64,000 nucleotides of DNA from Candidatus Latescibacterota bacterium (GCA_965222075.1 OZ244937.1:1472001-1536000), one strand, 5' to 3'; positions 35,401-62,420 are shown, counted from the stretch's first letter. Made by a program: numbers and translations. Notes: generated from the letters alone by a model not told the origin.

Positions 35401-37419
35401 TTAATAAAACTTATGCACCCGATGTCCCTGGTACGGAAACCAGATCGCGTCCACCGCCACCCCCGCAGCCACCGCGAGAACATATCCCACCAGCATGCCG
35501 ATGAAAAACGGCATCGACTTCCGGTAGAACGCCGCTCCGCCGGCTTTGAGCATAACGAGCTTGATCAGCCAGGCTACGAAAAACGCGGAACTCGTCCGCC
35601 TCACCAGCCCCGTGCCCGAAAGCGCGAATCCGATTGGATGAATCGGCCACCGGGTGAAGCGATAGCGCAACAGGTTCAGGAGGACCATCACAGCGGCCCC
35701 GGCCAGGAAAAACCAGGTGTTGCCTGTCTCCATCGGCTTGGGAGAGATGATATCGCTCACAGTCCACCGATACTCCCGCGCCCCCGAAATGATGATGATA
35801 TAGTTGGGCCGGAAGTTATAGCCCCCGATCGTGTAGCCCAGCCAGACCGTGTAGAGCGTGGAGAGAACCACCCCCACGGCGAACGCCATCCCCAGCCCCC
35901 AGAAGAGCCGCCGTTTATCCCCGTGCACGAAATCGCCCAGCCGGTTGACGTGGGCCATTGCCACCAGGCCGAACCCCTTATGGTGGCTGAGCGCAAATGC
36001 CGACAGCCTCAGGGCCACGTGCGAAGACGCGTTTAGATTCTTCCCACCGCCCAGGATGGCCGTGGCCAGGGATGATGCGGTGAATCCCCCTGCCGAGGCC
36101 GGCAGGCTGGCATAGATAAATCCTGAATCCGCCACAATCTTCGCCAGACCGGTATAAACCAGGAGCATCGCAGGAACCAGCAGAAAAATCAGCTGTGTCT
36201 CCGCGCCCAGTTGCCAGAGCCAGGCGATAATGTAGAAACAACTGACAGCCAGACCGATAAATGCCCCTCGGTAAGACAGCAGCTCCCGGCTGTCGTCAAC
36301 GGGCGAACGGTCCGGATGCAGGGCCTTTCTGAAGGCGTCGCGAAGGTGGTGCCGGGCCACCCAGAGTCCCCAGAGCACGAGGGCCACAAAGGCGCCCGTC
36401 GTCTGCCACATAAAACGCCCTGCTCCCCAGTAAGGGGTACTCACCGGGATCCCGATCCGGTTCAGCGCACCCCCTTCGAGGATAAACAGCACATCGGACA
36501 GCCAGAGACTGAAGAGAACCTCTAAGCTGGCGAAATAGGAAAAGCAGATCACAACCGTGCTCACAAAGACCCACAGGGGCGGGTAGGCCCTGGGGAGCTT
36601 GATCCACACCCCACCCGCCGTTGGAAACTTTGGAAACGTCGGGTAGAACCAGGCGATCATATTCCACCAGAAAATGAACGAGATCAGCGCAAACCCCGTC
36701 CAGAACGCCCTCCCCTTCATAAACCCCGGCAGCCCGCGCCTCCCGGTTCCCACCTGCGTGGTCATCTCCACGATCGGAATCATCGCCGGATAGACCAGCC
36801 GCTCGTTCGCCGACCACTGCCGGTGCAGCAGAATCGAGACACACGCGCATGCCAGCCCCGCGGCAAAGGCCAACGTGAACCACCAGATCAGCGGCACGGC
36901 CCACACGTCCCAGGGAATCGAAACCCCCTGTGGAAGTCCCTCATAGAACCAGGTCATCGCCCTGGTTTCGTCTGAGGGAACCATCCAGCCCGGCAGGTGG
37001 GAGTGCAGGTACTCCGCCCACTGGTTCTCCGGCGTCGCAAAGTAGTAAGGGGCCACCATCAGACTGACAATGTACCCGCTTACCCCGTAGGTTGGCCCCA
37101 GCGCGCTGATAAATCCCATGCTGAAGATCGTAACCCACTCGGACGGAGAGAAAAGCAACCGCCTGCCGAACCGCCGGGCCAGCGCAGTGCATCCCAGGAT
37201 TGAAAGCAGAAAGAGAATCAGGTTCGCCATCGGCACGTGGCTGTAGGCCATAAACGACCCGTGCGGTACGTAGAGCACCGTATTGGCCAGCAGGTTCACC
37301 GCGATGGCGAGACAGAGCCCGAAGCCGATCGACCGCAGCGTCACGCCCCGCTCCCGCACACCCTCTTCTCCGGGAACCGGGCCAATTTGCATTTTGCAAT
37401 TTGCAATTCCCATCCACAC
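35401..37419 (-). CDS. DUF6785/DUF6784-type polytopic membrane protein (putative transporter); start uncertain
   Basis: GVTLRS, PYYFATPENQW, W..NERLVYP, WPIHPIGF, PFFIG; many TM helices. Confidence 0.8.
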   Translation of the reverse strand: MWMGIANCKMQIGPVPGEEGVRERGVTLRSIGFGLCLAIAVNLLANTVLYVPHGSFMAYSHVPMANLILFLLSILGCTALARRFGRRLLFSPSEWVTIFSMGFISALGPTYGVSGYIVSLMVAPYYFATPENQWAEYLHSHLPGWMVPSDETRAMTWFYEGLPQGVSIPWDVWAVPLIWWFTLAFAAGLACACVSILLHRQWSANERLVYPAMIPIVEMTTQVGTGRRGLPGFMKGRAFWTGFALISFIFWWNMIAWFYPTFPKFPTAGGVWIKLPRAYPPLWVFVSTVVICFSYFASLEVLFSLWLSDVLFILEGGALNRIGIPVSTPYWGAGRFMWQTTGAFVALVLWGLWVARHHLRDAFRKALHPDRSPVDDSRELLSYRGAFIGLAVSCFYIIAWLWQLGAETQLIFLLVPAMLLVYTGLAKIVADSGFIYASLPASAGGFTASSLATAILGGGKNLNASSHVALRLSAFALSHHKGFGLVAMAHVNRLGDFVHGDKRRLFWGLGMAFAVGVVLSTLYTVWLGYTIGGYNFRPNYIIIISGAREYRWTVSDIISPKPMETGNTWFFLAGAAVMVLLNLLRYRFTRWPIHPIGFALSGTGLVRRTSSAFFVAWLIKLVMLKAGGAAFYRKSMPFFIGMLVGYVLAVAAGVAVDAIWFPYQGHRVHKFY

Positions 37420-37586
37420 ACCTGCTCAGAAGTGACTCCTGACGTCCAGTCCCGGCTCACAGCCCCGTGCCCCTGGGGAGGGGTTCCGTGTCTTTCCGTG
37501 ATAAAAAGAATGGCGGCGGGCCGCCTTCCCACCTGCGAGAAGACGGCCGATGCCGCCAGTGCTGTAAACGCCTATACGGAAAAGCC

Positions 37587-38576
37587 TCAGAAGCTGCCGC
37601 TCACCGTAAGCCGCAGCGGGTTGTTCAGCAGATCCCCAAACTGCGTCCAGGCAATGTCGATGCCAAGCGATCGTCCCTCCTGCATGGGAACCCTCACCCC
37701 TGCGCCCACACTGAAGGTCTCTTCGGAGTAGTTGAACTTGTAGCCTCCGCGCAGCGCCAGGTGCTCTCCCATCACCAGCTCACTTCCCACATGCCACCGT
37801 GCGGCGAAATCGACGGCATAGGCAGTCTCAAAAGAGACCGTCAGGTAGGTCGGATCTCCCTCCTCCTGGTTGCCGTAGAGCTCCCCCGCCCCGCCGACCG
37901 TGAAGTAGAGCGGCATATAGGCATGGTCAAACGAATAGTTCACATCCTTGCCCAGGTTCTTGAGCGACATGGAGAGCCGGACGCTCTTGAAGCCCGTGGA
38001 AAAATGCGTGCCCACGTCAAAGATGGGGGTCGTCGTGCTCTCTGTGAAGATCGTCTGCTGCGCAAAGCGCAACCTCACGCCTACACTCAGCTTGTTCGTC
38101 GGCCGGGCCGCGTAGGTCAAACCCGCCACAAAGGCGTTGCCCTCCACCATCCGGCCGGTCCCCTGCGGCCGAAAGATCGTCCGCTCCTCCACCGTGCCCG
38201 TGCGGAAGGACCGCACGCTGATGCCGATCACGCCCTTCGCCGTGTCATACGTGATGGCCGCCGCGTAAACCGACGTGTCCACCAGCCATCGGTTGTAGGA
38301 CATCATGTAATGCGTACCCTTGAGATTCCCGATTCCGGCCGGGTTCCAGAAGATGCTGCTGATGTCGTTGCCCACTGCCGTGTAAGCATCGCCCATCGCC
38401 ACCCCCCGGGCACCCACGCCGATCTTCAGGAAGGCGAACGTCGAGGCCCCGACCTTATTGCCGTCTTTATTCAAGTCAGCGGCGTAATAGAACCTCTCCC
38501 GGGCATCGGCAGATGAACCAATGCCCAAGAGCACGATCACGAGGACCGATACAGCGATCCGAAATCCGCTTTTCAT
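37587..38576 (-). CDS. PorV/PorQ (UPF0164) family outer membrane beta-barrel
   Basis: Signal peptide, FLKIGVGARGVAMG.A, IFWNPAG, LRGGY, C-terminal Phe. Confidence 0.88.
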   Translation of the reverse strand: MKSGFRIAVSVLVIVLLGIGSSADARERFYYAADLNKDGNKVGASTFAFLKIGVGARGVAMGDAYTAVGNDISSIFWNPAGIGNLKGTHYMMSYNRWLVDTSVYAAAITYDTAKGVIGISVRSFRTGTVEERTIFRPQGTGRMVEGNAFVAGLTYAARPTNKLSVGVRLRFAQQTIFTESTTTPIFDVGTHFSTGFKSVRLSMSLKNLGKDVNYSFDHAYMPLYFTVGGAGELYGNQEEGDPTYLTVSFETAYAVDFAARWHVGSELVMGEHLALRGGYKFNYSEETFSVGAGVRVPMQEGRSLGIDIAWTQFGDLLNNPLRLTVSGSF

Positions 38577-38636
38577 ATCCCTCGCTCCTTATGCAAGTAT
38601 AACAGAATGGCTTCAGTCTTCTCTCAACAGGCTGAA

Positions 38637-41036
38637 CTACTTGATAACGAAAAACTTCCCGGTCTGTATCTTCCCCATGCTCGACTCCATCAGGGACTTG
38701 ACTACAAAGAAGTAGACCCCGCTGGAGACCTCACCCGTCATCGACGTGGCCATCTGCGCCCACTTCACCTCCCCCAACTGCCCCGATGTCTTATCCGTGT
38801 CGTCGTGTTCAAAATGGGCCACCATGTCGCCCGAAGACGAGAAGACAAAGATCTCGCAATGGGTCGGAACGTTAACAAAGCGAAGCTCCACCTTCCCCGG
38901 GTACATGTGAACGCCGTCGTCCCAGAACGGATTCGGCACCACATAGACCTCCCGGCTCAGGTTGTCCGTTTCGGAAATCGCGGGCTGGCTTGGGCTGGCA
39001 GGGATCGGCGCCTTCTGTTCTGCCGCCGACAACCCGCTCTCCAACCCCGCCTGCACGTGCGCGGCGACCTTTCCCGGCAGCGTGGCCATCGAGCCCACAC
39101 TCCCCTGCCAGTCCGCATGGCCCGTATCGTAGCTTCGCACCGAGTACCAGTAGTTGAACCCCGCCACGGACTTCACGTCCTCGTAAGTGTAGGTCCCTGC
39201 TGCCCCATCGTGCGAAAAGTTCGCCGCCAGCGCACCCTTGGGCGTCTGCGCGACAAGTGTCCACGGGCCGTCAGGGGTCCACGTAGCCTGATAGATCCGG
39301 TACCCCGCCACATCGGCCGCCTCCCCGCCCGTATAGTCCGGGTCTGTCGCGTTGTCCGCGCCGTCCCCCCAAAGGATCAGGTTAGTGGCGTTGGAGCTAT
39401 CCACGATGCGGGCATACACATCGGGCGGCGCATCGGGCACATCGTACTCGTTCTGGTACGCCCAAATCGCACGCTCTGCGAACTCGACCATCCACTCCTC
39501 TCCCTTGGCCAACTCCGACAAGCTGCGCGGGTTATTCCGCGTCCAGGTGAAGATGTCCCCCTCGCCCGCGCCGCTGCCGATTGCAAATACCATCACGATC
39601 TTGCCCTTCTCACCCGGTGCAAGCGTATAAGGCCCGTAGGTCTGCCCACCGAACCAGGCCGCCACCTGGCTCATGGGCGGATCCGGATCAATACCCGGCG
39701 TGGTGACCATATCGAACATCTGCTTACGGGAGTGCACCGCCGCTCTCGGGTCAGCGAAGACGGTCTGCCCCTCGCACGGCCACCAGCGCACGGCGCGGGG
39801 CTGATCGCCCACTGGCTCCACATATTCTTTGGCCGCATCCCGGCCGTTGAACGGCTTGTCCAACCCGTAGGCCACCGGGGCCATGCCCACAAACTGATAG
39901 GAATTGAACTCCCCGTCAATGCGGCCCGTATTACAGTTGATATTCTGAATTGTGGACTCGATCGGATCGCCCGTATCCTCTAAGAGCGTCGTCGGATTGT
40001 CCCCGTCAAAATGGTAGCCGATCTTCAGGTTTTTCCCGGCCGCAGGGCCACTGTAGTTCGGCGACTCCGAGTACCTCACGTGGTCGTCAATCGACCAGTC
40101 GTGGAAGATGTACCACCGGTCTGCGTAGCGCCAGGCCGTGCCCGCGCCGCTTACCGCCATGGCGTTGATGAACGAAAGGTAGACCTCCTCGAGCGTCTCC
40201 TCGGGCAGATCCCGTTCCCCGTCGCCATCCGAGTCACCGGTATTTTCGAACTCCACCTCTACGATCATAAAATCGTCCCAGTCCCGGTAGCTCCATTCCA
40301 ATGCCTTCCGGCTAAACGTGACGCCCGCAAGCGTCGTCCATTTGGTGACGACAACCTCCTCGGGCCAGTTGTCGTCCGGGATGTACCGGTAGAAATCGAA
40401 GTTCTCGATCTTCGGCGGAATGCGCGAGATGTCTGCGCGTGCCTTCTCGTCCTCAACAAAGGTAGACCCAGGATAATATCTGCCCGTACGCCAATCATTA
40501 CCGGCCAGATCCGCAGGCACGGGAACCTTTTTCACAACACCCAGACCAGCGAGTTCGGAATCTTCTGCCGGGTCGTACAGCATCGGGAAGATCTCGTCTA
40601 ACAAGTCCCCCCTCGGGTTCGTGTACACGACGTAGTGGCCGTCCACCGAGGCGTTGCCGACCGGATGGCCGGAAAAGCTCGCCGGTACCTTCGTACTCAG
40701 CCAGATCCCCTCCCCGTGCGACGAACGTTCCTGGTTCGCCTCGGAGTTGCAGTCGTGCCGGTGCGTAATGAGACTTTTTGTCCAGCTACCGCCCGCCACC
40801 ACGTCCCCCCCTGCCTGTCTGGGGTAAGAAAGTCCGATGCTGTACCCGCGGACCTGGTCAATCGTTGCTCCCTGGGTACCCAAGTTCGTGAACCGGCTGC
40901 CAATCAACCCGCGTGTTGTGCCGGTCGACGAAGCGCTCGCCGCATCGTTGGCCATGGCATTTCCCGACCAGAACAGACCCAGACCAACTGAGATCAGCAA
41001 AACGCCGGACAGCGTCCAGTTCTTGTTCCCAATCAT
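38637..41036 (-). CDS. large secreted protein with FnIII-like region and T9SS-like C-terminal domain
   Basis: Signal peptide, PDAPP, AGYRIY, YWYSVRSYD, VYVVPNPF...IFSSSGDMV...SSGVYFFVV...GKFFVIK; ATG 41036 after AAGGAG. Confidence 0.75.
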   Translation of the reverse strand: MIGNKNWTLSGVLLISVGLGLFWSGNAMANDAASASSTGTTRGLIGSRFTNLGTQGATIDQVRGYSIGLSYPRQAGGDVVAGGSWTKSLITHRHDCNSEANQERSSHGEGIWLSTKVPASFSGHPVGNASVDGHYVVYTNPRGDLLDEIFPMLYDPAEDSELAGLGVVKKVPVPADLAGNDWRTGRYYPGSTFVEDEKARADISRIPPKIENFDFYRYIPDDNWPEEVVVTKWTTLAGVTFSRKALEWSYRDWDDFMIVEVEFENTGDSDGDGERDLPEETLEEVYLSFINAMAVSGAGTAWRYADRWYIFHDWSIDDHVRYSESPNYSGPAAGKNLKIGYHFDGDNPTTLLEDTGDPIESTIQNINCNTGRIDGEFNSYQFVGMAPVAYGLDKPFNGRDAAKEYVEPVGDQPRAVRWWPCEGQTVFADPRAAVHSRKQMFDMVTTPGIDPDPPMSQVAAWFGGQTYGPYTLAPGEKGKIVMVFAIGSGAGEGDIFTWTRNNPRSLSELAKGEEWMVEFAERAIWAYQNEYDVPDAPPDVYARIVDSSNATNLILWGDGADNATDPDYTGGEAADVAGYRIYQATWTPDGPWTLVAQTPKGALAANFSHDGAAGTYTYEDVKSVAGFNYWYSVRSYDTGHADWQGSVGSMATLPGKVAAHVQAGLESGLSAAEQKAPIPASPSQPAISETDNLSREVYVVPNPFWDDGVHMYPGKVELRFVNVPTHCEIFVFSSSGDMVAHFEHDDTDKTSGQLGEVKWAQMATSMTGEVSSGVYFFVVKSLMESSMGKIQTGKFFVIK

Positions 41037-41142
41037 GGATAAACTCCTTTTCAAGATAGAACCCCCCGCTTCCTGACCGTTCGGTCTTCAGCGGCCGGCT
41101 TTTCGCCGGGGGCCGATCGCCGGCCGCCGAACGCGTTCCTCC

Positions 41143-44100
41143 TTAGAAGTTCGCACGAATGCCGAACACCATCTCCCTCGGGTTCCCGTAATACCGCGAC
41201 CGATCGCTGAGATCGCCGTACTTCAGGTAGTCGGGATCGTTAGGTCGAGGCGCCTGCAGCCCCCACTGAATGTAGTCGAATCCGCTTGACACCGAGTCCT
41301 TCTGATTGAATACATTGAAAGCCTCAAGATAAAGGGAAAACTCACCCCTGGCGAACGGGAAGCTCTTCTCCACGTGCATATCCGTCCAGGTGCGGATTGC
41401 CCGGTGCCGGACCTCCCGCCTGCCCGTCGGGGGATTGTAGTTGAAATTGCTGCCCGTGTAGATCCGGTAGATCAGATTCACCCGCCAGTTGGCAAACACA
41501 GGACTGCCGAACAACCTCACGTTTGGACCATAATCCGGCGATGTGGCGTAGAGAAACTGCGCACTCCCCGAGTTCCGGACGTCGCTCCTTGGGCTGATGC
41601 CTCCCGAATAGGCCCTGGGCATCATCCAGAGGTGGTTCTCATCGATGTCATCAAACCCGGTGTACCCCCACTCCTTCATCGGAGCCAAAGTCCCATAGTA
41701 GTACCTGCCGCTTATGGACTGGTTCCTGTTGTTTCTATGGTTCTGCAGATATCTGTTCAGATAACTCCCCGCCCCGGCCAACTCCTCCTCCGCCAGGTAC
41801 ACGGGCACCTCCCGGCCGCCTTCCACCTTGAAATCCGACCAGTAGCGCGGCGTTCCATCGGCGTAGGGCGTCGATATCCAAATCGAATCCGGTACTATGT
41901 CGTTCCGATAATTCCCGTTCCGCCCGTCGGTAAACCACCGCAGGTTGTAGGCCACCCGGAACGAGAAGTTCCCGCTGAACCGCTTCTTGAGCGACATCTC
42001 CAATCCCCGGATGTCCTCGAAGTGCTGGTTGCCCAGGCTGAGGATGTACCTCCGCACCCACCGCCTCTTATCCCCCTGAAGCGTGGACGACCCGGGCCTC
42101 CGGTACTGGTTCGACTGGCTCTTGTAGAAAATCGAGGACGCCAGGACGAAGTCGGACACAAAGTTCCAGTCTACCCCGACCTCGAAGCTGACGTTCTTCT
42201 CAACCTTGAACTTCGAGCTGCCCTGACCGCCTCGCACTGGATAGGAGACGATTCCCGTATTGAAGAATTCGGATGCATCGATCACCCCGTTGTTGTCCCA
42301 GTCCTGGTCCTGGCTCGACGTCAGCCAGTCCTGGTTGTACAGGTAGTAGAGGCTCGGCCACTGCGCAAACTGTCCGATAAAAAAGTGCACCGTTGACCGG
42401 TCCGTGATCGGGTGAGACACCCCCAGACGCGGACTCAGCTTGAAACGCGGCGGCTGGTCTTTAAGCGGCACGTTCTGGAAGCGTGTATAGGTGAGGTACA
42501 TCGGCATCTTGGCAGCGTGCGGCAAGAACGGCACGTGGTCCCACGGATCTAACCAGTCGAAACGCACACCGGCATTGATGATCAGGCCTTCGAACTCCAT
42601 CTTGTCCTGGAGGTACAAGGCGCCGATAATCGGTCCTGCGGGCTGGCCCAGGAACACGCCGTTCTTGCCCGAAAGTTCGAGCCGCCGGCGCACGGCCGTA
42701 TCCCGGGTGACCCTGGTGGTCCAGATACTGTGCTTCACAAGGTCCAGGCCCGCCTTGACAAAGTGCCCCCGCGTCACCTGGCTGGAAAAGTCCGCCTTCA
42801 ACTGCCAGCTCGTCCGGCTCTTCTGCTCGAACTGCCGGACGTGACGGTACACGGTAAACCACCCATCCCTGTCCCTCTGAGGATCGAGCGTGGCCTTCTG
42901 GCCGCCCGGCACCTGGCTCGTGTCCTGCATCGACGAAGACCGCGCGATCCGCACCTCGTAGAACGTCCGCGGCGACAGCGTATGCGTGAGCGTCACGTAT
43001 TCCGTGTGGTCCGTATTCCTGTTCTTGCCCGAGCCAGACCACTCCATGGGCAGGAAGATATTCCTCCCGCTATCACCCAGCCCCTTCACAATCCCCCCGC
43101 TTACCCAGTACGAAACGTCTTGCTCAACGTAGCGGGAGAACCTCCGGAACATACCGCCGACCTTCAGCTTCAAGTTCTGGGACGGCCGAAAGGTCCCGTT
43201 ATAACTCATGTTAGTGTACCCGACAGACGGAATCAGCGCCCCGTTGGGCAGCTCAAACCCACTCTTCAGAGGCGCCGGCAGAGGACTGGCCAGCCGGCTG
43301 ATGTCTGCGGCAACCATAAAGCTCGAATTGTCCGTAAGCGGGCCCGAAACGTTCACGTCAAAAGCGTGCCCCCCAACCTCCGTGTAGTCAATACGCTCGT
43401 GGGCCAGACCCTGCACGTCATCCTCCGTGCCGAGTACCCCGTCCGGACCCACCGCGGCGTAGGTCTCATTCTCCCACGCGGCATTTCCCCACTTCATCTT
43501 GTCCTTGTGAATTGGGGCCTCGTAGACATTGGCTCCCCAGTGCTTCTTGCCCGCAGGCGTGTAGCGGTACTCCCCCCAGGCGTGGTAATCCGGTGCGCCT
43601 TCCCGGGTCACCACGCTGATCACGCCGCCCTGGGCGTTTCCGTACTCGGCCTCCATACCTCCCGTCACCAGCGCGATCTCCTGCGCCGCCGTCTTGCTCA
43701 ACCCGGCGAAGATCTGCCGGCCCACCCCCCTCTGATAGCCGGCCTGGGTGCTGTGCGACACCTGCACGCCGTCTACATAGTAGATAATGTCATTTCCGTC
43801 CCCACGGGAACCGGACGTCCCTATTTCCGAAGAGCGTACCGATTCCTCACCCCCGACGTCTGCGCCCGGCTGGAGGGCAACCACCTCGCTGGCCGTCCGC
43901 ACGATGGGCACCTCCGCAATCTCCGCCTCACCCACCACATATTTGCTCGACGTCTTGTCCACCTCCACGAGCGGACGCTCCACGGTCACCACGATCTCCG
44001 CCGCCTCAATCGCGGTCTCGGTTAATTTGAAATTCACCTCCGACGTAAAATCCGCCCGAACATCCACATCCGTCTTCGTCTGGTTGTTGTACCCGACCAT

Positions 44101-44355
44101 AGACGCCGTCAGGCTGTATATACCCGGCTCCACTGTCAGGATTACGTAGTAGCCTTCCGCATCTGTGGTCGTACCCCGCCGCGTACCCACAATCACCACA
44201 CTCGCCCCCGGCAGGGGCTGGCCCATCTCATCTAAGACGGTCCCGGTGATCTTCCCCGTCGTCCCGGCAGCAGCCAGCGACGGCAACACCAACAAGAGGC
44301 AGAGGGCACCAAAGGCCCATCCTGCCTTGCCAAATACCCTGCTGTTAATTCCCAT
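41143..44355 (-). CDS. TonB-dependent receptor with N-terminal carboxypeptidase-regulatory-like domain
   Basis: GTTGKITG, PLPGASV, GGMEAEYGNAQGGVI plug, YLQDKMEF, SPRLGVSHPI, NPR...F terminal. Confidence 0.92.
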   Translation of the reverse strand: MGINSRVFGKAGWAFGALCLLLVLPSLAAAGTTGKITGTVLDEMGQPLPGASVVIVGTRRGTTTDAEGYYVILTVEPGIYSLTASMVGYNNQTKTDVDVRADFTSEVNFKLTETAIEAAEIVVTVERPLVEVDKTSSKYVVGEAEIAEVPIVRTASEVVALQPGADVGGEESVRSSEIGTSGSRGDGNDIIYYVDGVQVSHSTQAGYQRGVGRQIFAGLSKTAAQEIALVTGGMEAEYGNAQGGVISVVTREGAPDYHAWGEYRYTPAGKKHWGANVYEAPIHKDKMKWGNAAWENETYAAVGPDGVLGTEDDVQGLAHERIDYTEVGGHAFDVNVSGPLTDNSSFMVAADISRLASPLPAPLKSGFELPNGALIPSVGYTNMSYNGTFRPSQNLKLKVGGMFRRFSRYVEQDVSYWVSGGIVKGLGDSGRNIFLPMEWSGSGKNRNTDHTEYVTLTHTLSPRTFYEVRIARSSSMQDTSQVPGGQKATLDPQRDRDGWFTVYRHVRQFEQKSRTSWQLKADFSSQVTRGHFVKAGLDLVKHSIWTTRVTRDTAVRRRLELSGKNGVFLGQPAGPIIGALYLQDKMEFEGLIINAGVRFDWLDPWDHVPFLPHAAKMPMYLTYTRFQNVPLKDQPPRFKLSPRLGVSHPITDRSTVHFFIGQFAQWPSLYYLYNQDWLTSSQDQDWDNNGVIDASEFFNTGIVSYPVRGGQGSSKFKVEKNVSFEVGVDWNFVSDFVLASSIFYKSQSNQYRRPGSSTLQGDKRRWVRRYILSLGNQHFEDIRGLEMSLKKRFSGNFSFRVAYNLRWFTDGRNGNYRNDIVPDSIWISTPYADGTPRYWSDFKVEGGREVPVYLAEEELAGAGSYLNRYLQNHRNNRNQSISGRYYYGTLAPMKEWGYTGFDDIDENHLWMMPRAYSGGISPRSDVRNSGSAQFLYATSPDYGPNVRLFGSPVFANWRVNLIYRIYTGSNFNYNPPTGRREVRHRAIRTWTDMHVEKSFPFARGEFSLYLEAFNVFNQKDSVSSGFDYIQWGLQAPRPNDPDYLKYGDLSDRSRYYGNPREMVFGIRANF

Positions 44356-44380
44356 ATTTCTATACCCCCCTTACTTGAGG

Positions 44381-45100
44381 TTACCGGCCCGATTCGTAGA
44401 ACCTCACCGCTATCCCAAAATCGAGCATCTGCAGCGGCCACGCCTCCTTCACCTCCCAGGCCTCCCGGGAATTGAGCTGCCCGAGGATGAAGTTGTAGCG
44501 TATCCGAAAGTCGAGGGCCAGGTTCTTCGTCAAAAACCGCTCCGCCCCCAACCCCCAATTCATCCCCAACGCTGTTCGCGTATCCTGCTGGGGTTCCAAA
44601 AGCAAACTCATATCCAGCGGTTCGGCCGACTGGGCCGGAAAGATCAACCCGGAAAGGGTGTTGTTGTAATCGTAAAACCCACCTCCTACAGTAACATAAG
44701 GCGACGTCTTCTGCGCCTGGAACAGGTCCGATTGATCCCCCAGGCGGACCAGGAAATTGATCACCACGGTGTTGATCTCCATGTCGGCCGCCGCCCGTGG
44801 GCTCTTGTACTGCTTGCCATCCACGGCCCACAGGAACGTCCGATCTTCGATCTTCCCATTGTGGTAGTTCGCACGGTGGTACTCAAACTCCATCGTCACC
44901 CTGGAGTCCATCGAATGGAGGAGGGTCGCTCCCCACTTCGCCGATTTCGTATACCACCCGTCACGCAGTGCAAACAAGGGCATGTTGTAATTGATAAACA
45001 CGCCGCCGCCGAACCGCCTGTAGTCCTGCGCATCAGCCAAGGTTGGCAAAAACAGAAGCAAGAAGCCAACGAACCCCAGGAATCTCCATCTGTTTTTCAA
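44381..45100 (-). CDS. outer membrane beta-barrel protein (OmpA/OmpW-like, small)
   Basis: Signal peptide, PYVTVGGG, G.NWGLG.E.F, alternating beta strands. Confidence 0.8.
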   Translation of the reverse strand: MKNRWRFLGFVGFLLLFLPTLADAQDYRRFGGGVFINYNMPLFALRDGWYTKSAKWGATLLHSMDSRVTMEFEYHRANYHNGKIEDRTFLWAVDGKQYKSPRAAADMEINTVVINFLVRLGDQSDLFQAQKTSPYVTVGGGFYDYNNTLSGLIFPAQSAEPLDMSLLLEPQQDTRTALGMNWGLGAERFLTKNLALDFRIRYNFILGQLNSREAWEVKEAWPLQMLDFGIAVRFYESGR

Positions 45101-45345
45101 AACCGAACCTCCTTATCTTCTGCATGCTGTCGAACCGAAACAACTCGACTGCTACCCTTCAACACTCACGTTCTGCGCATCCCCTCCTTTCTCTAATTTA
45201 ATCCGATTCAATGGCTAACTGCATATAGTCTCAGCAGCCAGTCCTTCATAACCCCTCTTCCCAAATCTTATAATTGTCACTAATCAAAAAACATAAAATA
45301 TAAGAAATTATAATAAATTTCCTCATTAATCCTTATCCAATGCCA

Positions 45346-45375
45346 ATTATAATTAGGAGACACGTCTTTTGTCAA
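45346..45375 (-). promoter_or_regulatory. consensus sigma70 promoter for the OMP-TBDR operon
   Basis: TTGACA (45375-45370), 18 nt, TATAAT (45351-45346) in an AT-rich divergent intergenic region. Confidence 0.7.
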
Positions 45376-45460
45376 GTGTTTTTTTGAAAGATCATGAGAT
45401 TGAAAACAAACACAAAGAACCGACTATGGTGGGAAGAAGACGATCCAGTGATGAAACCTA

Positions 45461-45489
45461 TTGATAAAAACCGCATGAATCCATATATT
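45461..45489 (+). promoter_or_regulatory. sigma70 promoter for the GWxTD gene
   Basis: TTGATA-17 nt-TATATT; inverted repeat AATCGG-N9-CCGATT just downstream (45499-45519). Confidence 0.55.
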
Positions 45490-45536
45490 TAAAAAGACAA
45501 TCGGATCATAAAACCGATTTAAATTCGGAGATTTAT

Positions 45537-48089
45537 GTGATGAAAAACACGTCTACACACTTTCCGAATACGCGCTTCCGCCTCTGTTTGCTCTTCTGGA
45601 TGATTCCGCTGGGGCCTGCACTCCCCGTCTCGGCCCAGGAGGTTCAAGAGGCGTCAGAAATTGTGCTTTCTCAAGCCGAACGGGACACCCTGATCGCCCT
45701 GGGAGAGCGACAGATGCGCGCAGGCGAACTCAGCGGGGCAGTCGACACCTTCACCCGCCTCGTTCAGGTCTACCCCCGGGATGCCCGTTTGCTCACCCGG
45801 CTCGGCCAGGCCCTCCTCAAAAACAGGGACTTCGATGCGGCCGCGGAGACCTTCAAGGCGGCCAAAAAGCTGGACAAAACCCGTCCCGACGCCTATGTGG
45901 GCCTCGGGCTGGTCTATGCGGAGAAACCCGCCAAGGGAATGGGCGCCTTCTACAACTTCCGCCGCGCCTTGGGGGAAGCCAAGCGGGCGACCAAGATCGA
46001 CTCGACCTACGGACCGGCTTACCGGCTCCTGGGAGAGGTCTACCAGCGCTTTCGGGAGGACTACGAAAAGGCGATCAACTACTACTCAAAATACGTTGAA
46101 CTGGAGCCCGACAACCTGGACGGCCTCTACTACTTCGGGCTGGCCTGCGTACAGGCCAGGAATTATGAAAAGATCAACCGGCACATCGCCCCCTACATGA
46201 AGAAAAACCCCCGGGAGGTAAGACTGCTGCCCCTGGTGGCCCAGGGATATTTCTTCCGGGAGGAGTTCGAGCTGGCCCTGGAGCACTTCGAGCGCTATCT
46301 TCAGCACCTGGACGAGCAGGAGTACGGGCTTCATACCGACATCACCCTTGTCGCTTCCAAAAAGGAGCTTGAGGACTACCGCTCCACCCCCGAGGATGAA
46401 CGCATCGCCTATCTGGAACAGTTCTGGAAGCGGCGGGACCCGGACATTCTGACCAGCATCAACGAGCGCATTATCGAGCACTACCGCCGGGTCTGGTATG
46501 CCCGGACCTTTTTTGCGGATAAGGTCCACCCCTGGGACAGGCGGGGGGAAGTCTACATCCGCTACGGAGAGCCGGATTACCGGTCCCGCTCCATTCAGAG
46601 GAAGTTCACTCAGAGCCCCGCAGTCGAGGCCCTGCGCACCCGCAAGGCCGTGGAGATGTACGGGCACGAGGCCGCCTATCTCTCCTTTTCCGGTCCGGTC
46701 TTTCCCATACGAACGCACAGCGAGGCCTACGGCGTTGACCAGTTTGACCTCCTGGCTGATGCCGATGCGGGGCCCGGCTCCAACCCCGACGGGACATCCC
46801 TCCCCGACCCGGGCGAATCCCCTGCTGTGGAGGACGCCCTTGTGAGTGGGGATGACGTCACTGCCTCAGTCGTGCAGGACCTTATCGGAGGCTTTGGCGG
46901 TCAAGAGATGGAGACGGAAGCATTCGGCGGCGAAATGCCCGATATAACCCACTTTGACGAATCGATGGGCCTGAATCTCCAGCTCAATTTCGACGGCTAC
47001 GCCCCCGTCACCATGCGCAACACGGGTGCCCTGGTGCCCTGGGAGACGTGGGTCTACACTCAGATCAAAGGGGGAATGGAAATCACCTTCACCGACGAGA
47101 CGGGCAACGGACAGTTCGACTTCGCCCCCGTTCCTCCGCTTCTCAACGCCGGGAAAAGAACGGTCCGCCGCGCCGCGCACATCCTCCAGCACGCGCCCGA
47201 AGTGATCTATCGGAAGGCCGCCGCCGACATCCCCGACTACTACCGTCCAGGCATCCAGGGCGAGCCGCTCAACTTCTACTACGATCTGGCCAACTTCCGC
47301 GGCCCGGCCGGACAATCCACCCTCGAGGTCTACTACGGCATTCCGCCCGCCCAGGTCGAAACCGTCCGGGAGGCCGACACCTCCTTTATCCGCGTGAAGT
47401 GCTTCCTGGCCTTAGCCGATGAGGGCCACACCCAGATCTACCGGGACGCAAAAGAGTTGCTCTATCACGGGGCCGATTCCCTCAGCCAGTCCAGAGGTAC
47501 CTTCGTCCCCGAAATCCTGAAACTTGAGGTGCCCCCCGGAAAATACGAACTCCAGGTCCAGCTCAAGGACCAGGTTTCGGGGCACGTCGGCCTCTACAAA
47601 CAGGCCGTGGAAGTCAGGGACTACTGGCAGGACGCCCTGCAGATCAGCGACATCCAGCTCGCTTCGAGCATCAGCGAGGAAGGGCATCTCGACCAGTTCA
47701 AGAAGGGCGACATCTGGATCATCCCCATGCCCTCCCGGGTCTACGGCAAAGCGCAGAAGGTCTACATCTATTACGAGATCTACAACCTGACAAAGAACAG
47801 CTTCGGCCAGACGCGCTACAAGACGCGGTACGCAGTCCGGTCCAGCTTCCAGTCCGGTTCGGGCGCCCTCCAGACCGTCGCCAGGGGGTTTCGCTTCCTC
47901 TTCAAACGGCGAAAGCCCCAGGTCTCGGTCACCCACACGCAGACCGGGACCGAGCCGACGCAGCAGGAATACTTCGAACTCGACCTGACCAAGGTAAAGC
48001 GGGGGGTCAACACCCTGGAGGTCACCATCACCGACGAGGTCAGCGGCCAATCCGCCACCCATGAAATCCGCTTCCGGCTGGGAACTTAG
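45537..48089 (+). CDS. TPR- and GWxTD-domain-containing exported protein
   Basis: Signal peptide, TPR helices, FWKRRDP..T..NE...EHYRRV.YA...F, WDRRGEVYIRYGEPD, WETWVY, LQISDIQLA. Confidence 0.88.
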   Translation: MMKNTSTHFPNTRFRLCLLFWMIPLGPALPVSAQEVQEASEIVLSQAERDTLIALGERQMRAGELSGAVDTFTRLVQVYPRDARLLTRLGQALLKNRDFDAAAETFKAAKKLDKTRPDAYVGLGLVYAEKPAKGMGAFYNFRRALGEAKRATKIDSTYGPAYRLLGEVYQRFREDYEKAINYYSKYVELEPDNLDGLYYFGLACVQARNYEKINRHIAPYMKKNPREVRLLPLVAQGYFFREEFELALEHFERYLQHLDEQEYGLHTDITLVASKKELEDYRSTPEDERIAYLEQFWKRRDPDILTSINERIIEHYRRVWYARTFFADKVHPWDRRGEVYIRYGEPDYRSRSIQRKFTQSPAVEALRTRKAVEMYGHEAAYLSFSGPVFPIRTHSEAYGVDQFDLLADADAGPGSNPDGTSLPDPGESPAVEDALVSGDDVTASVVQDLIGGFGGQEMETEAFGGEMPDITHFDESMGLNLQLNFDGYAPVTMRNTGALVPWETWVYTQIKGGMEITFTDETGNGQFDFAPVPPLLNAGKRTVRRAAHILQHAPEVIYRKAAADIPDYYRPGIQGEPLNFYYDLANFRGPAGQSTLEVYYGIPPAQVETVREADTSFIRVKCFLALADEGHTQIYRDAKELLYHGADSLSQSRGTFVPEILKLEVPPGKYELQVQLKDQVSGHVGLYKQAVEVRDYWQDALQISDIQLASSISEEGHLDQFKKGDIWIIPMPSRVYGKAQKVYIYYEIYNLTKNSFGQTRYKTRYAVRSSFQSGSGALQTVARGFRFLFKRRKPQVSVTHTQTGTEPTQQEYFELDLTKVKRGVNTLEVTITDEVSGQSATHEIRFRLGT

Positions 48090-48150
48090 GAAACCCTCAG
48101 GCGATTTGGGGCCCAGCCCCCGACCCATCTCGATTTCGAAATCACCCGGA

Positions 48151-51100
48151 TCATACCCGACTCAGCGCCGTCACAACGCCCGCGTCTGTACCCACCAGCA
48201 GGCCGGACGCCTCGGGCAGCGCCAGGCGGGTCAACACCGTCACGCCCCCATCCAGCCGGTGGCTCCCGATAACCTCCCCCCCAAGGGACAGGAACACAAT
48301 CCATCCTTCGGAAGTCCCCGCAACGATCACCTCTTCTTCACCGGCCTCAAAAAGGACCAGTCCGGTCACCGCCCCGTTCAGATCCCGGCGCCAGCGCTTC
48401 TCTCCCCGGCCGCTCAACAGCGCCACATGCCCGCTCTCGCTCCCCGCTACAAATCCGGTCCCGCCTACCACCACGCCGTGCCGAACATCGTCCCCCAGGT
48501 TCGCTGTCCAGAGGATCTCTCCGGAGATCGAATCAACCACGTAGACATTCCCATCCATCGCCCCGTAAACCGATTCCTTCACCCCGTCTCCATTCAGATC
48601 CACAAGCGCCAGCGCCGTAAAACAGGGGCCCCCTCGAACCGTCCACCGGATCCCCCCATCGGCCTCTAACAGATTCGACGTATAATACTCCGCGCCCACC
48701 AGGATCTCCTGTTTTCCGTCTCCCTCCACATCTCCAATCACCAGCGTCCGTGCCGCGTGGTGTTCGATCTGCCGCTGCCAGATCTCCTCGCCATCCGGCG
48801 TCAGCGCCCACACCAGCCACCCGTCCGTAGCCGTCAGGATCACCTTCTCTCCGTCTCCTGTCAGATCCGCCGTCGTCACCGCGTTCACATTCTGATCCAC
48901 CCCGTGCGACTCGGCAAACGCCCGCCTCCAGCAAACCCTTCCGGCAGAATCGAACAGCGTCAGCGCACAGTCCCGCCCCCCGGCCAGAAGCCCCCCCTCC
49001 TCCAGATCCGTCAGGTGCACGGCGCGCACTTCCGCGCCCGTCTCGTGCGCCCACAGGACCTGCCCGTCCCGGTCCAGCAGGAGAACCTGCCCGCCGGACG
49101 TCCCCACCGCGGTGGATTTACCCCTCGTATCCGCGCATCGAACCGGGGCCTCTACCTGCGCCTCCCAGATTGGCCTGAGCGGCAGTGTATCCTTCGGCAC
49201 AAAACCGTGCGCTTTAGGCACCCGCCGATGCGTGTAGGGCGCGCCGGACCGAACAGCTCCGCTCAGCGCATCCAGAAATCCGGGCTCGAAAGCCATTTTG
49301 TGCGTTCCAGCCGAAAGCCTGTCCAGTGCAGGCGCTACCTCCCCGTCAAAGCAAATACCCGGCATATTGCGCACCCTCACCCGGGTCTCCTCTTTCACCC
49401 GCACCTCACCCCGTCCCTCACCCGGATATACCACCAGATGCACCGGCGCCTCACTCTCAAATAACGCCTCGCCCGCCCACAGTCCTCTCCCGTTGAGCAG
49501 CACGATGGACGCTTCGGTCAACGCAAAAGCCTCCGCAGCAATACGGAACCCGCCCACCTGCGCCTCACCTTCCGCCACCCCGAAAACCGTCGAGCCGTCC
49601 GGGTGCTCCACCCTCACCAGGCCCTCGCCGATCCGCTCAATTCGGCACGCATCGACCTCCGCCTCCGACCCGGCCGCCATCAGGTTGAAATACCGCTCCA
49701 CATCTCCGGACTGACCATGCAGCGCCTTGTGCTGATTGAAAATCCGGATCAGACCGTCTGCATACGCGTATGCTTCATAGGGGTCGGTTCCCGCAACACG
49801 GGGCGCTTCCGTCACGAGGGACTTATCCGAATCATCCGCATTTCGAATCCGGAAAAACACCCCCTCCTGCTCCACGGTCAGCTCACTCCCCTCCTGACGC
49901 ACCTCCCCAAGCGTCCGCCACAGGCACCGCAGATCGTAATCCGCGTCCTTCAGGAGCTTGAGCGAGTCTGCAACCAGCAGGAACTTCCCCTTCACCCAGA
50001 AAATATCCCGCGTCCAGTCCACCCCGTCGTATTCCGGCACAGCCGTCCTTGTGAAAGCGGCCTCTCCGAAGTCTTCCGCCCACTTCAACCCCACCAGCGG
50101 CGGCACCTCCACACTTTCTCCATCGCAGATCGACACAACCGACGAGTGGTGCCGAGGACGTTTCCAGATGTAATCCAACTCCGCCAGCCACATCCGCCCT
50201 TTCCACGTCAGTCGCTCGATCGAATTGCCGTCCTCGTGCCCGTGCGCAAACGTCGAGGTCCCGTCCAGCAGGAGATAGAGGTCCTCCTCCTCGAAGCCCT
50301 CCCGCAGCGTCAGCTTATCAAACGCCTCTTCGAAGGGCACGTTCGCCCCACCCGGGCCGTGCCGCTCCACCCAATCGTAAAGCGACCGATTGAACGGCGC
50401 AATCGCAACCCCTGTCATCCGGTCGGGCGCCCGTTTTGGGAGCGCCCGGTAAAAACAGCCGGGATACGGTGTTCCGCCCATCCAGTCCAGCGCCCACAGA
50501 TAGCTCCCGTCCTCATAATACCAGGCCGCCGTACAGAGCGCCATCGCTAATTCGAGCGAAACCTTCTTGTGCTTGACCGCCACCTCATATCGGCCCGGCT
50601 GGATGTATGACCACATATCCCCAAAGCACACCTGTACGCCCAGGTTATCCGTAACAAGAATGCCGTAATCGGCAAAGGCCCGGAGCTGGCCGTTCTCCAG
50701 AAAGCGGAAATCGTCCCGCTTCAAATCGTAAATTACCTGGTGATACGGCGCCAGCCAGCAGTACCCCCACCACCCGCCCCCGGCATCGTCGTTCGGCTTG
50801 TAGCTCTCCGCCTGCCCGTCGAAAACCGCCCGGCAAAACCGGAGCTGTTTCTCAAATCCCTCTATCCCATAATACGTCTTGAAATATTCCGCACAGAACG
50901 ACCCGCTCAGCCCCGCAAACGTCCAGTGGTTCTGCCGGACCTCCAGGGGCGGCGGCTCCTCCCCCTTGAAATAGCTCAGGTCTGACACGTAGTTCGCCAG
51001 CCCCCACAGCACATTTGTGATCCGGAGGCGCTCCGCATCCGTAAACGCGTCGCTCTCCTCGATCAGGTCCCAGACCATGAATAGCCGCCACGCCCAGGAA

Positions 51101-51795
51101 TAAATGAACAGCATATGCTCAAACAGCCAGTTCCCACCGTAGCGGTTCCTCACCAGGTCCTCGTAGATAAACAGGGCATCCCGAAACATCCGTGCGCAGT
51201 TGAAATCGTGTGTCAGGTGGTGGACCAGCCCCAGGAAACTCCCCTGATCAACCGGGTAGTAACTGAGGTTGTTCTGAAACATCTCCGCCACCCACGCCCG
51301 GAACGCCTCCGGCGTCATCTCCGGCAGCAGCGCCTCGTGCACCTCCGACCGGGACAGATTCGTATACCCAAAGCGCCCCCCGGTCCCCTCTAAAACCCCC
51401 TCCAGCACCTCCAGCGCCGCAGCCGCACCCTCCACCCGGCTCGCGCCCACCAGCAGCATGTTGTACCCGCAGTTCTCCGGATTGTGCACCGTCCGAATCA
51501 CATACCCATCCCCACCAGGGTAAAAATCGTCCACAAACGCGTATCTTCGACGGTACAGCGCCATCAGTGCCGGGTTATTCATCGCGCTGCCCAAAAGCAC
51601 CCGGTGCCGCTCCTTAAGGGCCGAAGACCCCTTAACAATCGGCAGATCCACACCCGCATGCGCCCGGATCATCTCTTGCAGCCGCTGAGTCAGGGGCATC
51701 CAGGCCGGGTCTGCGGGCGCCACGATCTCCGCCCCTTTCCGGAGGTCTGTGATCAGGTGCATCTCCTTCAGCGTCTCAATCCGCCTCTCAGCCAT
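48151..51795 (-). CDS. large protein: alpha-toroid/heparinase-like core plus C-terminal FG-GAP/PQQ-like beta-propeller (paralog A)
   Basis: QNH, AFDKLTLR.GF, LLLDG...HGHEDGNSI, W.RDIFW, repeated DL.GDG..E motifs; no signal peptide. Confidence 0.7.
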   Translation of the reverse strand: MAERRIETLKEMHLITDLRKGAEIVAPADPAWMPLTQRLQEMIRAHAGVDLPIVKGSSALKERHRVLLGSAMNNPALMALYRRRYAFVDDFYPGGDGYVIRTVHNPENCGYNMLLVGASRVEGAAAALEVLEGVLEGTGGRFGYTNLSRSEVHEALLPEMTPEAFRAWVAEMFQNNLSYYPVDQGSFLGLVHHLTHDFNCARMFRDALFIYEDLVRNRYGGNWLFEHMLFIYSWAWRLFMVWDLIEESDAFTDAERLRITNVLWGLANYVSDLSYFKGEEPPPLEVRQNHWTFAGLSGSFCAEYFKTYYGIEGFEKQLRFCRAVFDGQAESYKPNDDAGGGWWGYCWLAPYHQVIYDLKRDDFRFLENGQLRAFADYGILVTDNLGVQVCFGDMWSYIQPGRYEVAVKHKKVSLELAMALCTAAWYYEDGSYLWALDWMGGTPYPGCFYRALPKRAPDRMTGVAIAPFNRSLYDWVERHGPGGANVPFEEAFDKLTLREGFEEEDLYLLLDGTSTFAHGHEDGNSIERLTWKGRMWLAELDYIWKRPRHHSSVVSICDGESVEVPPLVGLKWAEDFGEAAFTRTAVPEYDGVDWTRDIFWVKGKFLLVADSLKLLKDADYDLRCLWRTLGEVRQEGSELTVEQEGVFFRIRNADDSDKSLVTEAPRVAGTDPYEAYAYADGLIRIFNQHKALHGQSGDVERYFNLMAAGSEAEVDACRIERIGEGLVRVEHPDGSTVFGVAEGEAQVGGFRIAAEAFALTEASIVLLNGRGLWAGEALFESEAPVHLVVYPGEGRGEVRVKEETRVRVRNMPGICFDGEVAPALDRLSAGTHKMAFEPGFLDALSGAVRSGAPYTHRRVPKAHGFVPKDTLPLRPIWEAQVEAPVRCADTRGKSTAVGTSGGQVLLLDRDGQVLWAHETGAEVRAVHLTDLEEGGLLAGGRDCALTLFDSAGRVCWRRAFAESHGVDQNVNAVTTADLTGDGEKVILTATDGWLVWALTPDGEEIWQRQIEHHAARTLVIGDVEGDGKQEILVGAEYYTSNLLEADGGIRWTVRGGPCFTALALVDLNGDGVKESVYGAMDGNVYVVDSISGEILWTANLGDDVRHGVVVGGTGFVAGSESGHVALLSGRGEKRWRRDLNGAVTGLVLFEAGEEEVIVAGTSEGWIVFLSLGGEVIGSHRLDGGVTVLTRLALPEASGLLVGTDAGVVTALSRV

Positions 51796-51814
51796 CGCTC
51801 ATCCTTTCTGGCAT

Positions 51815-51861
51815 CCCTTCCCCAGCCCCTCTCCGATACGATACGGGGAAGGGGCCGGGGG
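51815..51861. repeat. REP-like GC-rich hairpin
   Basis: CCCCAGCCCCTCTCCG-atacgata-CGGGGAAGGGGCCGGGG intergenic. Confidence 0.55.
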
Positions 51862-51916
51862 TCAGGTCCTGATCCCAATCAAAGGCCCTGCCCTTACATG
51901 GCATTGCTTCCATCAC

Positions 51917-54574: not shown

Positions 54575-54666
54575 ATTCTCACTCTCCGAATTCGATCCCC
54601 ATGTAAACGCCATTGCAGCAGCGAGGGCCCAGCCCCCGGCCCATCTCGATTTCGAAATCACCCGGG

Positions 54667-58053: not shown

Positions 58054-58068
58054 TGGAATACCCTCCTT

Positions 58069-60039: not shown

Positions 60040-60046
60040 ATCCGTA

Positions 60047-62389: not shown

Positions 62390-62420
62390 ACCGACCTCCC
62401 TATAAGGTCCAGCGGGCGCC

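Follow-up and report, generated by a model that had tools for sequence, protein, structure and literature searches.

The DNA considered here is a window of 64,000 nucleotides, that is, the whole stretch that was analysed, from Candidatus Latescibacterota bacterium (GCA_965222075.1 OZ244937.1:1472001-1536000). All positions are given in window coordinates. The region 35401-48089 carries a gene module that we interpret, with a probability of roughly 0.55, as a SusD-less uptake module of a Latescibacterota-type bacterium, resembling a polysaccharide-utilisation locus (PUL), in which the partner of a TonB-dependent transporter (TBDT) would be a type IX secretion system (T9SS) cargo kept on a cognate PorV/PorQ-like carrier. 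The core of the module comprises the genes of a small outer-membrane beta-barrel, of the TBDT, of a secreted protein of 805 residues ending in a T9SS-type C-terminal domain (CTD), and of a PorV/PorQ-family barrel (Table 1). The map of open reading frames (ORFs) shows five co-oriented ORFs on the minus strand and a divergent one, encoding a TPR-GWxTD protein, on the plus strand, so that all six genes lie where a reading made earlier from the sequence alone (hereafter the sequence-only reading) had placed them. All six family assignments were checked with hidden Markov models. Four labels (DUF6785, PorV/PorQ, OMP_b-brl and TPR-GWxTD) were confirmed directly by Pfam and NCBIfam scans, and those of the TBDT and of the CTD through profile and structure comparison. 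As also announced by the sequence-only reading, the SusD family has no match among the 47 window ORFs scanned.

The conservation of the core was studied by scanning two peptide patterns from the family of the 805-residue protein over species-representative genomes; the survey covers pattern-matching relatives only. It returned 70 loci in 41 assemblies, labelled Latescibacterota (50 loci), Gemmatimonadota or Gemmatimonas (12 loci), Marinimicrobia or Neomarinimicrobiota (6 loci) and 'uncultured bacterium' (2 loci). The window proteins were mapped onto all ORFs of these loci with phmmer, and two gaps were settled by tblastn. A TBDT gene is found directly upstream of the 805-like gene in 66/66 loci with at least 3.3 kb of room (65/66 before tblastn), and a PorV/PorQ-like barrel gene directly downstream in 69/69 loci with room (68/69 before tblastn). 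The small barrel precedes the TBDT in 63/63 loci with room (62/63 before tblastn). All four core genes keep the same order and strand in every locus with enough flank. Two apparent exceptions were set aside. In L068, scattered N bases hid the TBDT and small-barrel genes and in L010, where the PorV/PorQ-like barrel seemed to be missing, a frameshift had fused two ORFs into a read-through ORF; tblastn finds the genes in both cases. Median gaps within the core are 21, 24 and 13 bp, the second one separating the TBDT and 805-like genes; these values are lower bounds, being taken from longest-ORF starts. The conserved triad of TBDT, CTD protein and PorV-like barrel foreseen by the sequence-only reading is therefore recovered in every locus with enough flank, but its extent has to be revised, the core being made of four genes including the small barrel. 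The set is SusD-less and PUL-like, its closest relatives being found in Latescibacterota-type genomes, not in Bacteroidota.

Clustering of 59 complete modules together with that of the window separated the 805-residue proteins into 11 groups, the barrels into 13 and the transporters into 12. The sizes of the top three groups (17, 14 and 10 members) coincide across the three proteins; the overall partitions are not identical. Single assemblies contain up to 6, 5 and 4 copies. The matching group sizes and the multiple copies indicate that the whole cassette duplicated and diverged as a unit, and it is proposed that each genome would in this way have acquired several substrate-specific copies.

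Some loci display additional genes or particular arrangements. In the module nearest to that of the window (L013, 67-69% identity), a gene for a LacI-family regulator (4937-6007) separates the small barrel from the divergent GWxTD gene; at this position, the window has only AT-rich spacer. L021 and L043, two modules on the same contig, stand back to back and are separated by a short GWxTD-like ORF. L054 has, at 1-4937 on the minus strand, a second transporter followed by a 644-residue ORF cut by the locus edge. The end of this ORF starts to match the CTD profile (E 1.2e-4), and phmmer with the window's 805-residue protein missed it, which hints at more divergent modules. In the Marinimicrobia-type loci (L063, L064, L066, L067, L068 and L069), a second 805-like paralogue is found about 2.4-5 kb downstream, the copy of L068 being detected by tblastn only. 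Finally, L064 and L069 carry a Por_Secre_tail protein of about 330 residues between the small barrel and the transporter.

The genes flanking the modules were scanned in 10 loci picked to represent different subfamilies (68 ORFs). They encode heparinase-like proteins, an alginate lyase, a PcRGLX-like lyase, sulfatases, GH4 and a GH130-like protein, as well as LacI and ROK regulators, an SSF symporter, an MR_MLE enzyme, PhyH dioxygenases and sugar oxidoreductases. Thus, in its surroundings the module resembles the transporter core of polysaccharide-utilisation loci whose substrates vary. Proteins with recognised sorting tails are also found in related loci, namely Por_Secre_tail proteins in Marinimicrobia (37-48 bits) and small proteins with cohesin and FlgD_ig domains in Latescibacterota (FlgD_ig 36-40 bits). 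It follows that these lineages use such tails. The FlgD_ig-tailed proteins, of about 270-290 residues, are located upstream of the module in one Latescibacterota subfamily (L004 4344-5219, L011 2874-3707, L012 4168-5049, L014 2195-3004), and two of them also have a cohesin domain.

The 805-residue protein belongs to a large unnamed family. Searches of Pfam and NCBIfam with the whole protein or with its last 107 residues gave nothing usable at E<=10, the best direct Pfam match of these last residues being CHU_C (E 0.097), and a single-sequence search of the PDB was uninformative. A word-indexed search found 12 close homologues. A profile search over 1.84 billion cluster representatives retrieved 3703 of them at E<=1e-3, a number that falls to 1396 at E<=1e-10 and to 148 at E<=1e-30; most are 650-800 residues long. 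Since the database record has 799 residues, translation probably begins at the ATG at 41036. The N-terminus consists of a hydrophobic stretch followed by AMA|ND, with no cysteine, and the family consensus ends in AQAN. No segment exceeds the 1.6 cut-off in a hydropathy scan, the signal peptide being read from the sequence itself. An AlphaFold2 (AF2) model computed from an alignment of 111 sequences reached a predicted local distance difference test (pLDDT) of 93.1 and a predicted template modelling score (pTM) of 0.92; it replaces a first model from 12 sequences (pLDDT 62.9), which gave weak Foldseek matches. The modelled chain is beta-rich: a large body (about 115-540) is followed by an fn3-like domain, then by a helical linker and finally by a C-terminal beta-sandwich. 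In a profile search, the fn3-like domain matches 3mpc (E 8.3e-7). Mean identity between subfamilies is highest in the fn3-like domain (46%) and the CTD (45%) and lowest in the N-terminal segment 36-115 (24%).

Profile comparisons indicate that the tail of this protein is, by homology, a T9SS-type sorting domain. In hhalign, an alignment of 19 family tails was matched to nine bona fide Por_Secre_tail/FlgD_ig tails from related loci with a probability of 97.5% (E 6.3e-12). The family profile also matches the CTD of PorZ (5m11) by sequence (E 9.4e-4). Sub-threshold CHU_C, FlgD_ig or Por_Secre_tail matches were obtained for 9/25 distant family members, and one Atlas cluster near the query has Por_Secre_tail on 17% of its members. 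When the model was compared to the PDB with Foldseek, PorZ came first (5m11, E 9e-6), along with PorU (6za2, E 4.1e-4), with whole-chain template modelling (TM) scores of about 0.1; the likeness of the predicted structure to PorZ and PorU is local. The T9SS-like CTD of the sequence-only reading is thereby upheld, in sequence as in predicted fold. Homology of the entire protein to PorZ was considered and rejected, only the CTD being alignable (TM 0.12 and root-mean-square deviation 20.6 over the whole chain).

The body of the protein is less easily related to known structures. It has a weak Foldseek likeness to the N-terminal sandwiches of GH94 and GH116 (TM about 0.2). This leads to an alternative, which we regard as unlikely, where the 805-residue protein would be a surface enzyme or an adhesin of a new fold, anchored by the barrel, and the transporter would import the released products with no stable complex being formed. 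Such a role would suit a body that has no recognisable binding module and weakly resembles N-terminal domains of glycoside phosphorylases and of GH116, as well as the conserved acidic NTGDSDGDG-type loop of the protein and the second paralogue of Marinimicrobia, located away from any transporter. In addition, T9SS cargoes of Bacteroidota are commonly enzymes and adhesins (PMC10202324). However, only N271 and D626 are polar residues conserved at 90% or more across the 111 family members, which leaves almost nothing for a catalytic centre and argues against an enzyme. Moreover, the transporter gene is strictly adjacent, at a short distance (median 24 bp), in all loci with room, and the flanks already provide separate candidate enzymes.

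The product of the last core gene, a barrel of 329 residues, belongs to the PorV/PorQ family, and the PorV-like label of the sequence-only reading is kept at the level of the family model NF033709, not at that of an equivalog. Indeed, the equivalog models remain below their cut-offs (PorV, 61.8 vs 250 bits; PorQ, 75.4 vs 220; PorV2, 41.6 vs 325; NF033710 and NF033711 are among the models not reached). Pfam PorV and Toluene_X fall just under theirs. A profile of the barrel matches F. johnsoniae PorV (6h3i_F) with an E-value of 1.6e-18. A complex was modelled between residues 540-805 of the 805-residue protein and the mature barrel, each with its own alignment. The interface score ipSAE (interaction prediction score from aligned errors) was 0.88, 0.89 and 0.89, compared to 0.00 for the best of three controls. 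The mark used for such complexes is reached by 116/157 solved complexes and 2/215 mismatched pairs, counts that are rough here since own alignments were used. At least 89% of the contacts agree between runs, and the partner pLDDT is at least 84. Contacts on the cargo side are almost all within residues 704-805. On the barrel side, they occur in segments about 40 residues apart, which in the model are interpreted as loops of a single face. The modelling thus supports what had been suspected from the sequence alone, namely that the CTD binds the neighbouring PorV/PorQ-family barrel.

These data also bear on the possibility that the 805-residue protein and its barrel form a generic T9SS accessory pair, the counterpart of PorZ-PorQ, functionally unlinked to the transporter. 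PorZ is the best Foldseek and profile match of the protein, the PorQ model gives the barrel a somewhat higher score than the PorV model does, and PorZ retains its CTD and binds PorQ (PMC10202324). We nevertheless hold this to be very improbable. The match to PorZ concerns the CTD alone, and the PorV and PorQ equivalog models are both far from being reached. Besides, a housekeeping complex would be expected once per genome, whereas an assembly can have as many as 6 diverged copies of the pair, each with its own transporter and different catabolic flanks.

The 1070-residue protein is assigned as a divergent TBDT because of the profile of its orthologues and of the domains of its homologues. Direct Pfam scanning detects the N-terminal CarboxypepD_reg domain (74.9 bits), Plug and barrel domains both being absent from its matches. 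The plug and the first barrel strands of FepA/PfeA are matched by a profile built from 17 orthologues (E 5e-13), which also matches CirA and YncD/PqqU. Homologues, labelled TonB-dependent receptor in their source, carry Plug, TonB_dep_Rec_b-barrel and OMP_b-brl_4. One of them, at 40% identity, has a Plug domain at 33.7 bits (cut-off 23.9), and distant ones (25% identity) reach 88.9 bits on PF00593 together with OMP_b-brl_4. On the SusC/RagA model TIGR04056, the window protein scores 46.5 bits for a cut-off of 368.25, only the N-terminal model positions 2-167 being matched. The EIVVTVE motif that follows the N-terminal extension resembles the TonB-box consensus and is a putative TonB box. The succession of signal peptide, N-terminal extension, putative TonB box, plug and predicted barrel is the SusC-type order. 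As for the small barrel, its N-terminus is hydrophobic in the hydropathy scan and was read as a signal peptide. Profile searches found no solved relative for it; their sole match, MITSUBA-1 (E 0.0015), was taken as spurious.

Precedents for a CTD protein held by a barrel exist in Bacteroidota. According to a review, the CTDs of PorU and PorZ are retained and these proteins remain attached to PorV and PorQ, cognate PorV-like barrels are suggested to protect CTDs from cleavage, and PorP/SprF are carriers of specific substrates (PMC10202324). CTDs were described bound to extracellular loops of the carrier, and type B substrates exit the translocon with alternative carriers, which then anchor them (PMC10994853). 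The following mechanism can be proposed. The 805-residue protein would be exported by Sec thanks to its signal peptide and would then cross the outer membrane by a type IX-like route, via its CTD. It would stay on the surface with an uncleaved CTD bound to extracellular loops of the neighbouring barrel, binding being predicted by the complex model and retention being postulated from the cases of PorZ-PorQ, PorU-PorV and the type B CTD carriers. Placed beside the transporter, it could serve as an extracellular substrate-capture partner, the role of SusD lipoproteins in Bacteroidota. The transporter would import oligosaccharides from the co-located lyases, sulfatases and glycosidases, and the DUF6785+DUF6784 protein would be the inner-membrane carrier. 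The sequence-only reading had referred to the shuttling of cargo by PorV. The involvement of a PorV-family barrel stands, but the nearest precedent is the anchoring of a retained CTD, as in PorZ-PorQ, rather than PorV shuttling.

It should, however, be noted that several observations weigh against this proposal. The survey of synteny is limited to matches of the two patterns, and the wider family of about 3700 representatives lies outside its scope. The second 805-like paralogue of the Marinimicrobia loci has neither a transporter nor a PorV/PorQ-like barrel of its own. Curated T9SS models miss the CTD of the 805-residue protein, and its body revealed neither a recognisable ligand-binding site nor a known carbohydrate-binding module. 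CTD-PorV complexes have already been solved (6h3i, 8gl* entries), and therefore the success of the complex model may reflect family likeness, not the specificity of this pair. A terminator-like hairpin sets DUF6785 apart from the core. Some flanks point to non-glycan substrates (ceramidase-like, GDPD and esterase genes). Finally, no T9SS core gene (SprA/Sov, PorK-N/GldK-N, PorU) was found among the 47 window ORFs.

The module can be compared to several known systems. As in SusC-SusD and RagA-RagB, a TBDT with a CarboxypepD_reg-type extension is followed by the gene of a large surface partner, and the pair, which exists in numerous diverged copies per genome, is surrounded by genes for polysaccharide lyases, sulfatases, glycosidases and regulators of sugar use. 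In contrast to these systems, the module has no SusD-family protein, its transporter is far from the SusC/RagA model, its partner is beta-rich, lacks a lipobox and ends with a T9SS-type CTD, two extra barrels belong to the core, and the lineage is that of Latescibacterota and Marinimicrobia. Lipid-anchored extracellular capture proteins also accompany other TonB-dependent barrels, such as TbpB with TbpA and BtuG with BtuB. Unlike these co-receptors, the partner of the module would be protein-anchored, via a carrier barrel. Genes of type B cargo and of SprF-type carriers are adjacent, as are the cargo and carrier genes here. The likeness to PorZ-PorQ, PorU-PorV and type B cargo would extend to a CTD protein held on a cognate PorV-like barrel, with the CTD on the barrel loops in the model and its retention put forward by analogy (PMC10202324, PMC10994853). 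The differences are that the barrel does not qualify as an equivalog of PorV or of PorQ, that the body of the cargo is unrelated to PorZ and PorU, and that the pair is tied to a TBDT gene and multiplied in catabolic loci. Another FadL-family barrel, BamG, binds the surface lipoprotein BamH and packs against BamA (PMC12578637, PMC12611786). As described there, the 14-stranded barrel holds its surface protein by extracellular loops next to a larger barrel, to which the arrangement proposed for the module would be similar. BamH, however, is a lipoprotein bound via its N-terminal region, not via a CTD, and the large barrel is BamA, not a TBDT.

A further question is whether the module could be an export or assembly device. 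A protein of interest in this respect is Oar from Myxococcus, which is TBDT-like, is needed for PopC secretion and consists of CarboxypepD_reg, a plug and a barrel of about 1000 residues; to our knowledge, neither CTD cargo nor a PorV-like barrel is associated with it. The TBDT could, as Oar for PopC, be the exit route of the CTD protein. Alternatively, the two small barrels and the surface protein could, like BamG and BamH, help the biogenesis of the large barrel. The combination of CarboxypepD_reg, plug and very large barrel is indeed common to Oar-type proteins. Some TBDT homologues carry OMP_b-brl_4, the window ORFs include no T9SS core gene, and a FadL-like barrel has a precedent in the beta-barrel assembly machinery (PMC12578637, PMC12611786). 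Nonetheless, this is the least probable of the readings considered. The CTD is homologous to ordinary T9SS tails borne by unrelated neighbouring proteins, pointing to a general T9SS, and the catabolic and transporter context, distinct from that of Oar, fits import. In addition, we know of no structural precedent for the passage of a folded 800-residue protein through a plugged 22-strand barrel.

To return to the SusD-less uptake module, the kinds of systems behind it are known, on the one hand TBDTs with a surface partner and on the other hand T9SS cargo-carrier pairs. What appears to be new, on the basis of the gene arrangement, is the strict coupling of a CTD cargo-carrier pair to a TBDT and its multiplication in catabolic loci, for which no precedent was found. 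No publication describing the module was found in the literature searched, which lacks most subscription journals, in line with the lack of functional characterisation stated by the sequence-only reading. A Caldithrix paper and a Latescibacteria single-amplified-genome paper mention TonB receptors only for B12, thiamine and iron.

If confirmed, the proposed mechanism would have several consequences. TonB-dependent uptake of glycans with a surface lid is understood almost only from the SusCD systems of Bacteroidota, which have a lipoprotein as their lid. Latescibacterota and Marinimicrobia are uncultured and abundant and degrade marine and sediment polymers, and the strictly conserved multi-copy cassette provides a concrete model for substrate capture in these phyla. 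The module would also give a role to a large uncharacterised family (the 3703 cluster representatives). It would represent a new way to build a sugar-uptake machine, the surface partner being held by a barrel instead of a lipid anchor, and would bring nutrient transporters, next to adhesins and the attachment complex, under the 'cognate carrier' principle of type IX secretion. In practice, the small barrel, TBDT, CTD protein and PorV/PorQ-like barrel, often with DUF6785, make up a marker set for PUL-like loci outside Bacteroidota. A broader and more speculative idea, which we consider somewhat less probable than its converse, is that several phyla from the FCB (Fibrobacteres-Chlorobi-Bacteroidetes) group without SusD build TonB-dependent 'utilisomes' with a type IX lid that is never released and is permanently docked onto the transporter by the PorV/PorQ-like carrier and the second, small barrel. 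Secretion and import would then be physically coupled, and the CTD family of about 3700 representatives would be the counterpart of SusD. The phyla meant are Latescibacterota and Marinimicrobia; family members were also flagged in clusters labelled Ignavibacteriota, Gemmatimonadota and Bacteroidota.

Two further genes of the region are more loosely attached to the core. The DUF6785+DUF6784 protein has about 12 hydrophobic segments. A DUF6785 homologue is present within 10 kb in 44/70 loci, downstream on the same strand in 42/70, and both domains are found in 16/16 module-linked homologues. This protein is the likeliest inner-membrane carrier, hence a candidate transporter. The inner-membrane step that the sequence-only reading attributed to it is a putative role. 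A single-sequence PDB search was uninformative, and a relationship to OPT/peptide transporters, a weak lead from an Atlas score of 0.79, was abandoned, as Pfam gave no OPT match for 16 members at E<=1 and the profile no PDB match. The second gene is that of the divergent TPR-GWxTD protein, recognised by TIGR04514, for which the GWxTD family of Pfam (PF20094) scores 19.4, below its cut-off of 26.9. A GWxTD homologue occurs within 10 kb in only 22/70 loci, in variable position and orientation. Its association with the module is loose, and its designation as an assembly or periplasmic partner, made from the sequence alone, is not borne out by this distribution. One or the other of the two genes is found within 10 kb of the module in 62/70 loci.

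The intergenic regions of the window give some indications about expression. The consensus promoter reported by the sequence-only reading was located as a perfect 12/12 match, in the AT-rich divergent region that it had also described. From 34000 to 49000, 6 promoter-like sites were counted, for 4.5 +/- 2.6 in shuffles, so that only the perfect site is notable; TTGACA/TATAAT is, besides, a consensus that may not be the one used by the host's phylum. Between the barrel gene and DUF6785, the 147-nt spacer that contains the terminator-like hairpin has a folding energy of -68.9 kcal/mol (z -3.94), and 0/200 shuffles fold equally well. The hairpin fits a four-gene core with either read-through into DUF6785 or separate control of this gene, and suggests that the core is a transcription unit with attenuated read-through. 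A GC stem of 13 bp in the 88-nt spacer between the TBDT and 805-residue protein genes (41055-41142, minus strand) was discarded as a real structure, its z of -1.85 versus shuffles being not significant.

Table 1. Features of the module and of its surroundings in the window.
Feature	Position	Strand	Remarks
Polytopic membrane protein DUF6785+DUF6784, 672 residues	35401..37419	minus	DUF6785 303.5 bits (cut-off 25), DUF6784 72.3 (cut-off 26.4)
GC-rich hairpin followed by a U tract, terminator-like	37512..37533	minus	between the barrel gene and DUF6785; pattern scan
PorV/PorQ-family (FadL-like) barrel, 329 residues	37587..38576	minus	NF033709 163.8 bits (cut-off 90); predicted cognate carrier/anchor
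805-residue secreted protein, no named family	38637..41054	minus	signal peptide without lipobox, beta-rich body, fn3-like domain, linker, sorting domain
C-terminal domain of the 805-residue protein, T9SS-type by homology	38640..38954	minus	residues ~701-805; motifs VVPNPF, GVYFFVV, GKFFVIK
TonB-dependent transporter (TBDT), 1070 residues	41143..44355	minus	signal peptide, CarboxypepD_reg N-terminal extension, TonB-box-like EIVVTVE, plug, large predicted barrel; last residue F
Small outer-membrane beta-barrel, 239 residues	44381..45100	minus	first core gene; PF13505 OMP_b-brl 29.5 bits (cut-off 28.7)
AT-rich divergent spacer between the module and the TPR-GWxTD gene	45101..45536	no strand	436 bp; 36% GC vs 60.2% in the window
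Promoter-like site TTGACA-18 nt-TATAAT	45346..45375	minus	5' of the small-barrel gene; predicted; 12/12 consensus matches
Secreted TPR + GWxTD protein, 850 residues	45537..48089	plus	TIGR04514 58.3 bits (cut-off 28) and TPR families; divergent
Adjacent catabolic cluster	48151..62482	minus	three heparinase II/III-like proteins, second DUF6785+DUF6784 gene (58069-60066), beta-helix/PKD protein (Pfam)

In the window itself, the module adjoins a catabolic cluster, which places it in a setting of glycan utilisation. Two of its heparinase II/III-like proteins have FG-GAP/PQQ-like propellers and one has DUF4962. The CTD profile detects no other CTD protein in the window than that of 805 residues, and the lyase-like enzymes are therefore not obvious T9SS cargo. 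Within the cluster, the proteins of 1214 and 1128 residues have near-identical N- and C-termini and no evident signal peptide; that of 917 residues has one. Farther away, 23980-30395 (plus strand) encodes a metal-efflux set composed of an outer-membrane efflux protein, an HlyD_D23 fusion protein with a heavy-metal-binding domain, an AcrB-type pump and a small HMA-domain protein. A likely toxin-antitoxin pair, made of DUF4258 and then of an MqsA-like antitoxin, is encoded at 1566-2125 (plus strand), and the end of the window where it lies is the only one rich in AT (GC 0.467 in 1-2000).

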